From: Escherichia phage vB_EcoM_VR7
DNA: 64,000 nt
Direction: 5' to 3' (one strand)
Sequence record: NC_014792.1
In this document: positions 43,816 through 45,099 of the stretch, in pieces
How positions within the stretch are numbered: position 1 is the first letter of the stretch
How the letters are laid out: every line of letters begins with the position of its first letter
Made by a program: the position numbers and the translations under genes
The notes under the pieces: model-generated
The model's input: the letters and a program-made list of their open reading frames with translations, nothing else
What the model was told of the DNA's origin: nothing
Database searches by the model: none

Positions 43816-45099
43816 ATGACACAAACTACAGGTGAAAAAGAAGGCGTATTTTACGGTTATTCTCTTTATGATTTGAATAAAGAAAAACTAATAACTTTTG
43901 ATGAATTACTTACGGGTATTCAAGGAGAGCCCGGAGAAAATGGCGATATTGGACCAAAAGGTGACCAAGGCCCTGTGGGACCACAGGGTATTCAAGGGGA
44001 TACAGGTCTTCAAGGAGTTCCAGGAGAAAATGGTGCTATTGGACCAAAAGGTGACCAAGGCCCTGTGGGACCACAGGGTATTCAAGGGGATACAGGTCTT
44101 CAAGGAGTTCCAGGAGAAAATGGTGCTATTGGACCAAAAGGTGACCAAGGTATTCAAGGGGATACAGGTCTTCAAGGTATTCAGGGACCACAAGGACTAC
44201 AAGGAGACCCGGGAACGCAGGGTCCACAGGGTATTCAAGGTCTAAAAGGAGATAAAGGCGACCAAGGTATTCAAGGTGAAACAGGTGCTCAAGGTATTCA
44301 GGGTATTCAAGGAGTTCCGGGTGCCAAAGGAGATATAGGCCCAGTCGGTCCGGCAGGTTTAACATGGAAAGGTTCTTGGAATATTGCAACTGCTTACGCA
44401 GTTAACGAAGCCGTTGGACACGATGGAAGCCTATATTTCGCCACAGCTGAAAGCACCGGACAAACTCCTTCATTAGGTAGCGATTACTGGGAAGTCTTAG
44501 CAACGGAAGGGCCTGAAGGTCGGCAGGGCGTAGAAGGCGCGCAGGGTCCACAGGGTATTCAAGGTCCACAAGGTATTCAAGGACCTAAAGGTGATACGGG
44601 TGAAACTGGACTACAAGGTCTTAAAGGCGACAAAGGAGAGGCAGGTTTAACCGGACCACAAGGACTCCAAGGTATTCGTGGCGAACAAGGAGAAACGGGC
44701 GCACCGGGTATTCAAGGTATTCAGGGTATTGCTGGAGACCAAGGTCCTAAAGGTGACACGGGCGACAAAGGTGATACAGGTGCCACTGGTCCAGCCTACG
44801 AGTATAAAAAAGTATCTAGATTTACAATGCCTGCCGCTGGTATATCAAATTCTACTCCTTTATTCGATTCAGGATTAACAATAAGTATGTTAGGCGTCAA
44901 AGCTAATACATTTAGATTTACCCTTACTAATACAGGTTCAGCGTCTAGAGTTATTGATGGTGAAATAATTTATTTTGACCCGGACGGTACAGCAAAAAGA
45001 TTTGTTGTTCATTTTTCAATAGCTGCTGGTGAGACAACCAATTTTCGGTACGTACACGTATGCAATTACAACTCCCAGAGTTTTTACTTTAAATTTTAA
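43816..45099 (+). CDS. Collagen-like (Gly-X-Y repeat) protein with non-collagenous C-terminal domain
   Basis: 427 aa; GGAGGA RBS; long uninterrupted G-X-Y tracts in two blocks; ~100-aa C-terminal beta-rich domain. Confidence 0.8.
43933..44184 (+). repeat. Near-perfect 90-bp tandem DNA repeats (about 2.8 copies) inside the collagen-like gene
   Basis: Unit ggagaaaatggtgctattggaccaaaaggtgaccaaggccctgtgggaccacagggtattcaaggggatacaggtcttcaaggagttcca starts at 43933, 44023 and 44113; the third copy lacks 18 bp. Confidence 0.85.

Follow-up and report, generated by a model that had tools for sequence, protein, structure and literature searches.

A near-identical 90-bp tandem array in a collagen-like gene of Escherichia phage vB_EcoM_VR7 and its probable origin by recent in-frame duplication

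Collagen-like surface proteins of bacteria, among them BclA of Bacillus, Scl of Streptococcus and Lcl of Legionella, carry variable numbers of Gly-X-Y repeats. For the Bucl proteins of Burkholderia, length polymorphism of the collagen-like region has been described (PMC4565658), and bacterial collagens of this type share several traits with the phage gene considered here: uninterrupted Gly-X-Y encoded by near-identical tandem DNA units, non-collagen domains that are kept while collagen length varies by in-frame gain or loss of repeats, and a stalk carrying a terminal globular domain. They differ from it in that the VR7 gene is a presumed virion or late gene of a lytic T4-type phage and not that of a cell-surface protein, that its product has neither signal peptide nor cell-wall anchor and a stalk interrupted by a module of the CBM5/12 fold, and that it repeats a long stretch of 90 bp, or ten triplets, just 2.8 times.

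Among phages, lambdoid prophages of E. coli encode the collagen-like side tail fibres EPclA-D (Ghosh et al. 2012, PMC3368898), which resemble the VR7 protein as modular, E. coli phage-encoded proteins with (in VR7, presumably) trimeric collagen segments and domains shuffled between phages; the VR7 protein, unlike them, lacks PfN, PfC and Pf2 and belongs to another phage family and another genomic module. In siphophages of Streptococcus thermophilus, the Tal protein bears variable extensions of collagen-like, CBM, collagen linker and C-terminal domains, with host adhesion as the proposed role of the distal extension (PMC7533335), but this extension is joined to a baseplate protein of the gp27 type, with CBMs that are BppA-like, not CBM5/12, whereas the VR7 protein is stand-alone, with a presumed N-terminal anchor of 33 aa and a gene among head genes. 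The collagen-like capsid decoration protein gp12 of SPP1 (cited in PMC7602432 and PMC5292684) is comparable as a phage collagen-like trimer and a dispensable, auxiliary virion protein encoded with head genes; gp12 is a small protein in which a short collagen motif is combined with an alpha-helical C-terminal portion, whereas the VR7 protein has ~466 aa and, besides its CBM-fold module and beta-rich C-terminal domain, two collagen segments that are both long. Phage fibres with CBM5/12-fold modules have been solved for cyanophage A-1(L) (8KEC) and Agrobacterium phage 7-7-1 (9RKV), and the predicted VR7 module superposes on that of the A-1(L) tail fibre with TM 0.80-0.82 and rmsd 1.8-2.1 A, at a sequence identity to the solved phage-fibre modules of only 19-25%.

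The DNA analysed, hereafter the window, is a 64,000-nt stretch of the genome of Escherichia phage vB_EcoM_VR7 (NC_014792.1), in which all coordinates are given (Table 1). The homologue-supported form of the collagen-like gene, with one extra T discounted, extends to 45217 and encodes 466 aa in the order N-terminal anchor, collagen, CBM5/12-fold module, collagen and beta-rich C-terminal domain. Its 50 + 32 Gly-X-Y triplets place it in the Pfam family Collagen (PF01391; 141.1 bits against a cut-off of 27.2, E 9.3e-42), and a Pfam scan admitting matches up to E 1 returned, beyond this, only a weak CBM_5_12 match and none to PfN (PF08400), PfC (PF06820) or Pf2 (PF03406). Pro makes up 12-16% and charged residues 22-30% of the X and Y positions, and the triplets GIQ, GPQ and GDT recur throughout the gene. 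By analogy with other bacterial and phage collagens, both segments are assumed to form a triple helix without hydroxyproline. The phages in question are reported to be low-temperature phages (Kaliniene et al. 2010).

Table 1. Features of the collagen-like gene and its surroundings, in positions of the window.
Feature	Positions	Strand	Remarks
Candidate late-promoter box	43786..43793	+	AATAAATA, matching the T4 consensus TATAAATA at all but one position; 22 nt before the ATG
Shine-Dalgarno GGAGG	43807-43811	+	Downstream of the late-promoter box
Collagen-like fibre gene	43816..45099	+	427 aa as read in VR7
N-terminal non-collagen segment	43816..43914	+	aa 1-33, presumed virion anchor
Collagen segment 1	43915..44364	+	50 uninterrupted Gly-X-Y triplets, ~43 nm as a triple helix
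Repeat copy 1	43933..44022	+	90 bp
Repeat copy 2	44023..44112	+	90 bp, 88/90 identical to copy 1
Repeat copy 3	44113..44184	+	72 bp, 18 bp shorter, 68/72 identical to copy 2
CBM5/12-fold module (predicted)	44365..44508	+	~48 aa, interrupts the collagen stalk
Collagen segment 2	44509..44796	+	32 Gly-X-Y triplets, ~27 nm
C-terminal globular domain	44797..45217	+	~140 aa, beta-rich, read across the frameshift
T-run with one extra T	45042..45045	+	Relative to VR5, ESCO10 and contig L011; codons AAT TTT CGG
+1-frame continuation	45047..45217	+	Conserved C-terminal 56 residues GTYTYAITT...IEKLYN; ORF 45029-45217
Hoc paralogue	45227..46045	+	272 aa, ESRNG motif, second gene of the cassette; phrog_1149 E 1.8e-57
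G+C-rich hairpin	46047..46066		Between the convergent hoc-like and hoc genes

The 90-bp unit begins at 43933, 44023 and 44113, exactly where an earlier note on this DNA had placed it within the open reading frame, and the array is in frame with the gene (43933-43816 = 117 nt, or 39 codons), each full unit translating into ten uninterrupted Gly-X-Y triplets. Copies 1 and 2 differ by a synonymous C/T at 43944 and by an A/C at 43946 that changes Asp to Ala, and the array holds a perfect direct repeat of 114 nt (43947-44060 = 44037-44150); copy 3 follows copy 2 for 38 nt, lacks 18 nt, matches again for 27 nt and diverges over its last 7 nt. Tandem Repeats Finder reports the stretch 43911-44150 with period 90, 2.7 copies, 95% matches, no indels and a score of 431. 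Similarity at this level exceeds what the repetitive collagen code produces, as 10,785 codon-phased pairs of 90-nt segments from both collagen-coding regions outside the array reach at most 72% identity (mean 33%), against 88-90/90 within it. Of the third codon positions, 29/30 are identical between copies 1 and 2, which argues for recent duplication of DNA and not for convergence at the protein level. Head-to-tail, in-frame copies of high nucleotide identity, together with a length that differs among related isolates, mark this as a candidate VNTR locus.

Comparison with relatives bears out the recent expansion that the earlier note had proposed, since copies 1 and 2 differ at 2/90 positions as against 9/90 between VR7 copy 1 and the orthologous VR5 copy; over the 856 nt 3' of the array, VR5 and VR7 show 10 differences (1.2%). 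The two mismatches are confined to the head of the unit, and the GGCGAT of copy 1 and GGTGCT of copy 2 reproduce the contrast between the full and partial units of VR5, the copy 2 head being that of the partial second copy in VR5. That partial unit departs from VR7 by a 9-bp indel and five substitutions in 15 nt. The earlier note had read copy 3 as a unit with an 18-bp deletion; it is 18 bp shorter, but a simple deletion is improbable because VR5 also has a partial unit with the GGTGCT head, and copy 3, to judge from these alignments, is probably an older partial unit also present in VR5 that was partly homogenised towards the 90-bp unit.

The earlier note had named a uniform repeat number across related phages as what would speak against its reading, and the number is not uniform: the array is 99 bp shorter in VR5 and absent from ESCO10, and a 54-bp indel in collagen segment 2 sets VR25 apart from VR26. 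Triplets in segments 1 and 2 number 50/32 in VR7, 39/32 in VR5, 39/39 in ESCO10, 38/60 in VR26, 38/66 in VR25, 38/27+27 in KIT01, 36/47 in Kosakonia phage 305 and 35/33 in Certrevirus CR8, with a different total in every relative and indels among relatives that are all multiples of 9 bp. Tandem-repeat signals of other kinds occur in all relatives but JS10, the best being those of ESCO10 (period 108, 85% matches) and KIT01 (period 54, 84%). The proposed length-variable stalk thus holds in part: lengths do differ between relatives, but segment 1 stays at 35-39 triplets in 7/7 relatives despite strong sequence divergence, which points to length constraint rather than free variability and makes the 50 triplets of VR7 a one-off outlier, not one state of a freely varying stalk.

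The array was seen in no other phage among 50,697 records and the scanned IMG/VR contigs, and an exact-pattern scan of IMG/VR for the 90-bp unit found none; IMG/VR scans with the Hoc-like protein and the N-terminus returned VR5, VR25 and VR26 only, and a metagenome scan gave a single match, to an unrelated collagen. A whole-protein search of a database of 5.8 billion proteins was dominated by generic collagen matches and brought up no close relatives, though it was usable for harvesting CBM-like modules, and searches with the C-terminal and N-terminal domains recovered only two fragments, both from one Logan contig. The gene is also mosaic, its first 146 nt being 100% identical to VR26 up to 43961, inside copy 1, and the remainder VR5-like.

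Distal to the array, the VR7 module scores 17.2 bits (E 0.0055) against Pfam CBM_5_12 (PF02839), below the cut-off of 26.2, which the JS10 module at the same position passes with 27.3 bits; a profile of 49 modules matches the chitin-binding domain of chitinase A1 (1ED7, E 3.5e-7). The AlphaFold2 model of the module (pLDDT 93.7) aligns in Foldseek with chitin-binding domains and the A-1(L) tail fibre at TM 0.72-0.82 and rmsd 1.0-2.1 A; for the CBM5/12 domains from chitinase C and from chitin deacetylases, TM is 0.72-0.76 and rmsd 1.0-1.3 A. Two aromatics of the module, Tyr16 and Trp47, do not vary, and profile and model together support homology to CBM5/12 at the family level, with a predicted three-stranded beta fold bearing conserved aromatics. 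The C-terminal domain, modelled from a four-row alignment at low confidence (pLDDT 54, eight strands), finds only generic Ig-like or beta-sandwich matches (E ~1e-3), and its reading is therefore limited to a beta-rich domain; C-terminal domains of this gene are shuffled between Tevenvirinae and Vequintavirinae. In VR7 the extra T shifts the frame, and the open reading frame stops at 45099, losing the last 56 residues, which are conserved in the distant P0011 (53% identity); it is accordingly either a sequencing error or an inactivating mutation. As VR7 and VR5 show 100% identity beyond the frameshift, the change is extremely recent if it is not a homopolymer sequencing error. With the gene frameshifted near its 3' end, the VR7 isolate may carry the expansion in a non-functional gene, and the longer stalk may never have been displayed on a functional fibre.

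We consider it likely that the array records a very recent in-frame tandem duplication in the first collagen segment of an accessory late gene for a trimeric fibre or adhesin of this T4-type coliphage. The anatomy of the array suggests how it may have arisen. From an ancestral state as in VR5, where a complete 90-bp unit made of a 'GENGD' head and the tail stands before a partial one with a 'GENGA' head, mispairing of the two similar heads during replication slippage, or unequal recombination on this short homology, could have inserted one extra unit of 'GENGA' head and tail, and a further small event of 9 bp with local homogenisation would bring the gain to 99 bp. The outcome would be a step from 39 to 50 Gly-X-Y triplets and a stalk ~9.4 nm longer. 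The path to the third copy requires at least two events and admits several reconstructions. The 114-nt perfect repeat could feed further gain or loss of units through the phage's own homologous recombination, and among the relatives the repeats coding for Gly-X-Y are places of in-frame indels and module exchange, the anchor being kept while collagen lengths and C-terminal domains are swapped.

The duplication might be questioned as such. An assembly artefact in VR7, or conversely a collapsed assembly in VR5, is very improbable: a 114-nt perfect tract in tandem repeats is classic trouble for short-read assembly, and a Logan contig (L011), whose copy has large deletions and an internal TGA, is an example of how poorly the gene may assemble, but the copies can be told apart (the Asp/Ala head; copy 3 without 18 bp and with its own 3' junction), the array of only 252 bp fits within one Sanger or paired read, and the indel and clustered substitutions in the VR5 partial unit are not those of a simple collapse. 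Nor are old repeats still undergoing gene conversion, or selection acting on a recurring peptide motif, a likely substitute for recent duplication. Collagen genes are indeed made of similar, recurrent triplets, and copy 3 appears partly homogenised relative to VR5; the near-identity at synonymous positions and the distance of the orthologous VR5 unit weigh against this reading, and the absence of the extra unit from VR5 and ESCO10 implies a net gain of DNA and not conversion alone.

That the extra unit arose by neutral accident while an accessory gene decays, and means nothing, whether as adaptive tuning of length or as a contingency locus, is a possibility of some weight, although on balance we think it unlikely; it contests the significance of the duplication rather than the duplication itself. 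The two-gene cassette is dispensable, being missing from VR20 and SP18, the conserved end of the protein is lost through the extra T, the sole departure from the usual length of segment 1 is found in this frameshifted copy, and contig L011 would be another damaged copy. Set against this, the collagen region contains no stop and is perfectly in frame, and the identity to VR5 beyond the extra T leaves the lesion very recent or an error of sequencing. That the frameshift is used, ribosomes shifting +1 at UUU_CGG (45043-45048) to give forms of 427 and 466 aa, is hardly to be expected. The site does pair a shift-prone P-site codon with a slow A-site codon, UUU_Ynn being especially prone to bacterial +1 frameshifting (Atkins et al. 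2016, PMC5009743) and CGG being rare (3/57 Arg codons in these genes), and the conserved end of the domain is encoded in the +1 frame. Yet VR5, ESCO10 and L011, with the same type of C-terminal domain, and P0011 are in a single frame with three T's, so that the two-frame arrangement lacks conservation; a Shine-Dalgarno-like stimulator at the short, prfB-type spacing is absent, and no sequencing error is more common than a one-base difference in a homopolymer.

The collagen-like gene is the first of an optional cassette located in the head cluster, between gp24/rnlB/24.3 and hoc/inh. The box upstream of it suggests late-promoter activity; it is kept in VR5, ESCO10, VR25, VR26 and L011, and WATAAATA occurs in excess in the window, with 27 matches where 11.8 are expected. 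The cassette transcript is likely terminated at the hairpin beyond the Hoc paralogue. The Hoc-type C-terminal domain with ESRNG, the capsid-binding motif described by Fokine et al. 2023 (PMC10385173), is present in this paralogue and in hoc (46071-47186) and absent from the collagen-like protein. The related gene of CR8 lies between major capsid and neck genes, upstream of the sheath gene. Homologues carry the public label 'tail fiber', which is unproven: the VR7 gene is in no tail or baseplate module and has no recognised tail-attachment domain, and the PHROG 'tail fiber' matches span its collagen, CBM and C-terminal parts, none of which indicates tail attachment. We give a low probability to the bolder reading that the protein is not a tail fibre and is instead a head- or neck-attached adhesin working with the co-transcribed Hoc paralogue, with a stalk of normally ~38 triplets that jumps by 10-triplet units and, in the VR7 isolate, two C-terminal isoforms made by a +1 shift at UUU_CGG; if true, T4-type phages would have a kind of appendage that has so far gone undescribed.

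Genuine as the repeat is, it exemplifies a commonplace sort of length variation through repeats and holds nothing surprising for specialists in phage fibres or bacterial collagens. It provides a clean, datable case of a phage fibre gene whose Gly-X-Y repeats give rise to length jumps in frame and to joints for recombination, and it draws attention to an accessory two-gene cassette of a collagen-like fibre and a Hoc paralogue. In practice, the length of the collagen-like gene will vary between isolates, a pitfall for short-read assembly and annotation that contig L011 and the frameshift illustrate. Should the protein be an adhesin, stalk length and swapped C-terminal domains could alter how phages under consideration for therapy bind to hosts or surfaces.

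Literature on VR7 gp196, on Dhakavirus/JS98 collagen and on virion proteomics of homologues yielded no experimental data on the VR7 protein, and a collagen-domain virion protein of Certrevirus CB7 (CB7_10, 112 kDa) belongs to a different, larger gene. The N-terminal segment has no paralogue among the ORFs of the window and is kept in all relatives, whichever distal domains they have, with identities of 90-100% in VR5, VR25, VR26, ESCO10 and KIT01, 55% in Kosakonia phage 305 and 49% in Certrevirus CR8; P0125 is also among the evidence for its conservation. A likeness of this segment to the EF-hand protein NCS-1 (E 0.054) was set aside, the would-be ligand positions not being conserved in Kosakonia phage 305 and CR8. 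The overlapping ORFs at 43898-44245 (+), 43906-44193 (-) and 44126-44389 (-) are by-products of the stop-free Gly-X-Y periodicity.

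The earlier note described three near-identical copies of a 90-bp unit inside the collagen-like gene, and direct sequence comparison returned the same coordinates for all three, in frame within an ORF of 427 aa (as read in the window) assigned to the collagen triple-helix repeat (Pfam; 141 bits, E 9e-42). The only mismatches between copies 1 and 2 are a synonymous one at 43944 and one at 43946 that changes Asp to Ala, and a perfect direct repeat of 114 nt runs through the array; copy 3 matches copy 2 over 38 nt, skips 18 nt, matches again over 27 nt and diverges thereafter. Tandem Repeats Finder recovers the array with period 90, 2.7 copies, 95% matches and a score of 431. 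Since collagen genes are inherently repetitive, background identity was measured in 10,785 codon-phased 90-nt segment pairs from both collagen-coding regions, array excluded, where it peaked at 72%, against 88-90/90 inside the array, whose copies share identical third positions in 29/30 codons. The near-identity at the nucleotide level is thereby upheld: the array is a genuine DNA-level repeat and no by-product of Gly-X-Y coding. Long stop-free ORFs over the same DNA in other frames or on the other strand (43898-44245, +; 43906-44193, -; 44126-44389, -) were rejected as genes, being by-products of Gly-X-Y periodicity.

Features of the collagen-like gene and its surroundings
Feature	Coordinates	Strand	Remark
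gp24, two paralogues	39502-40782; 40783-42066		first in order around the locus
rnlB, then 24.2 and 24.3		-	between the gp24 pair and the collagen-like gene
collagen-like gene	43816-45099	+	
repeat copy 1	43933-44022	+	direct sequence comparison
repeat copy 2	44023-44112	+	2 differences from copy 1
repeat copy 3	44113-44184	+	without 18 nt relative to copy 2
114-nt perfect direct repeat	43947-44060 = 44037-44150		
inserted CBM5/12-fold module	44365-44508		between collagen segments
+1 frame ORF	45029-45217		
T-run	45042-45045		
Hoc paralogue	45227-46045	+	after the collagen-like gene, co-oriented
hairpin	46047-46066		
hoc	46071-47186	-	
inh		-	after hoc
uvsW		+	after inh

Orthologous loci were compared in VR5, ESCO10, VR26, VR25, KIT01, JS10, Kosakonia phage 305, the Logan metagenome contig SRR22213611_37802 (L011) and Certrevirus CR8. 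The VR5 gene differs from the window at only 10/856 nt downstream of the array, yet its own array, one complete unit followed by a partial one, is 99 bp (33 codons) shorter; ESCO10 is without the array and has other internal duplications and indels. The otherwise near-identical phages VR25 and VR26 are separated by a 54-bp (18-codon) indel in collagen segment 2, flanked by repeated GAQGPIGLTGPKGDTG coding sequence, which is an independent case of repeat-mediated length change. Every indel among the relatives is divisible by 9 bp, and the 2.8-copy array was not found elsewhere in a 50,697-genome phage collection or in IMG/VR contigs. Repeat number and stalk length differ among related phages rather than being uniform, in keeping with the length-variable stalk that the earlier note considered likely. 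Segment 1 holds 35-39 triplets in all relatives counted despite strong sequence divergence, with the window the sole outlier, and this near-constancy looks like a length constraint. In L011 the collagen-like gene (1845-2597) is only ~750 bp long, having lost the CBM module and collagen segment 2 through in-frame gaps, and contains an internal TGA; the cause is either decay of the gene in another phage or mis-assembly of its repeats from short reads.

Gly-X-Y triplets in the two collagen segments
Locus	Segment 1	Segment 2
Window	50	32
VR5	39	32
ESCO10	39	39
VR26	38	60
VR25	38	66
KIT01	38	27+27
Kosakonia 305	36	47
CR8	35	33

That the expansion is recent, as had been proposed, is supported by a divergence of 2/90 between window copies as against 9/90 between copy 1 of the window and that of VR5. 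The mismatches between copies 1 and 2 are confined to the unit head, GGC GAT ('GD') versus GGT GCT ('GA'), and as both head types recur in VR5, where the full unit has 'GD' and the partial second one 'GA', the window array is best read, on this comparison, as head-D+tail, head-A+tail, head-A+rest. Starting from an ancestral 1.x-copy arrangement with head types as in VR5, insertion of exactly one head-A+tail unit would suffice for the 90-bp gain, and the array's anatomy suggests that misaligned pairing between the two heads (29 nt, 2-3 mismatches) could be expected to give it. Copy 3 would then be the older partial unit, so that its 18-bp shortfall is real but hardly a simple deletion. Against the VR5 partial unit it shows a 9-bp indel and local homogenisation towards the unit sequence, which would represent a second event, and at least two events (90 + 9 = 99 bp) are therefore called for. 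The gene is moreover mosaic: its first 146 nt (43816-43961) are 100% identical to VR26 (Gaprivervirus), an identity ending 29 nt inside copy 1, and the stretch from ~44001 to 47462, comprising the rest of the gene, the hoc-like gene, hoc and inh, is 97% identical to VR5 and ESCO10 (Dhakavirus) and to the unclassified L011. A recombination joint and the duplication thus both fall in the Gly-X-Y coding repeats. T4-type phages are recombination-proficient, and homologous recombination should now be able to act on the 114-nt perfect repeat to add or remove further units.

Collagen-like regions that differ in length by tandem repeats are familiar from the bacterial surface proteins BclA, Scl and Lcl. 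They are also well known, at the level of tandem DNA repeats, in the Bucl surface proteins (PMC4565658), and Streptococcus thermophilus phages have Tal adhesion devices in which variable collagen-like stretches occur together with CBMs (PMC7533335). The repeat expansion is hence confirmed and well dated, and exemplifies a known phenomenon in a gene that already carried a collagen-like annotation; record notes of relatives name the homologue 'VR7 gp196, collagen triple helix repeat protein', so the gene was already public, under the product name 'tail fiber protein'. The residual interest lies in where the fibre sits on the virion, how it relates to the Hoc paralogue and what a frameshift near the 3' end represents.

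At that site the window has four T's where VR5, ESCO10 and L011 have three, and the ORF consequently stops at 45099 with 17 unrelated residues, while the +1 frame encodes the final 56 residues, conserved as far as database protein P0011 (53% identical; ...IEKLY). The restored protein would have 466 aa, that is, the 433 of VR5 plus 33 extra residues. As the DNA downstream of the T-run is identical to VR5, the extra T would be either an error in sequencing the homopolymer or a mutation that inactivated the gene very recently. Low-level rescue of the full-length protein by ribosomal +1 frameshifting might be imagined, the codons at the site being AAU UUU CGG, with UUU_Ynn a bacterial class prone to +1 shifts (PMC5009743) and CGG rare in these genes, but this arrangement is conserved in no relative and we therefore regard such rescue as very improbable. 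Should the frameshift be real, this isolate may carry the repeat expansion in a gene that is already inactive, which would fit with the window as the sole copy outside the 35-39-triplet rule.

The surrounding 12 kb are 95% identical to Escherichia phages VR25 and VR26 (Straboviridae, Tevenvirinae, Gaprivervirus), and gene order is that of the T4 head-gene neighbourhood. The two adjacent ORFs (426 and 427 aa) at the gp24 position correspond to a paralogue pair (capsid vertex protein) annotated there in VR5, VR20 and JS10, the assignment in the window being positional for the upstream ORF. In the loci compared, the collagen-like gene and the Hoc paralogue are always paired in the same orientation; the pair is present in the window and eight fetched T4-type loci (VR5, ESCO10, VR25, VR26, KIT01, JS10, Kosakonia 305 and L011) and jointly absent from VR20 and SP18, and thus forms an optional cassette, with a conserved AATAAATA late-promoter-like box upstream and, closing it, a hairpin shared by the convergent Hoc paralogue and hoc.

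The 'tail fiber' label and PHROG matches derive from the collagen, CBM and tip parts and carry no evidence of tail attachment. Genomic context points elsewhere, given the pairing with a Hoc paralogue that bears, like hoc, the ESRNG capsid-binding motif, the optional late-type cassette, its position among head genes, and, in CR8, the gene for a protein with a related N-terminus, flanked by the major capsid gene and the neck genes and lying upstream of the sheath gene. Collagen-like capsid decoration also has a precedent in SPP1 gp12 (PMC7602432, PMC5292684). The collagen-like protein itself lacks the Hoc capsid-binding domain and is outside the Hoc family, and no experimental localisation of it was found in the literature; unlike the E. 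coli prophage EPclP family, it has no PfN, PfC or Pf2 domain in a Pfam scan and therefore falls outside that family too.

All relatives share one architecture: an N-terminal segment (~33 aa) conserved whatever lies downstream, collagen 1, a ~48-aa non-collagen module, collagen 2 and a C-terminal globular domain, of which there are four or more unrelated types, exchanged even between IME08 (Tevenvirinae) and CR8 (Vequintavirinae). This combination of conserved N-terminal anchor, stalk, carbohydrate-binding-fold module and swappable tip suggests a virion-attached trimeric adhesin. Collagen rises 0.286 nm per residue, at which value the segments would be ~43 and ~27 nm long, with ~9.4 nm contributed by the 33 extra residues. 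Residues 8-32 (43837-43911) resemble an EF-hand loop (NCS-1, E 0.054), probably by chance, the ligand positions being unconserved in Kosakonia 305 and CR8.

The inserted module scores 17.2 bits against Pfam CBM_5_12, below the 26.2-bit threshold (the JS10 equivalent lies above it). Of 75 collagen-embedded modules collected from database matches, 48 were aligned with the window module; the profile built from this alignment matches the chitinase A1 chitin-binding domain of Bacillus circulans (1ED7) at E 3.5e-7, and the AlphaFold2 model (pLDDT 93.7) superposes on CBM5/12 domains with an rmsd of 1.0-1.3 A and resembles one module of the cyanophage A-1(L) tail fibre (TM 0.80-0.82). Such modules between collagen segments are widespread among metagenome collagen proteins (P0001-P0120), the 75 distinct copies often occurring several per protein in an alternating, 'beads on a rope' layout. 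The window-type C-terminal domain has only five relatives among 1.84 billion representatives, including collagen proteins P0011 and P0125; from its low-confidence model (pLDDT 54, eight strands) we conclude only that it is beta-rich. Its first half resembles a unit repeated ~20 times in P0123, a giant adhesin-like protein (3751 aa) with SprB repeats and a CHU_C type IX secretion signal domain, a likeness that hints at an adhesin-type beta module at the tip.
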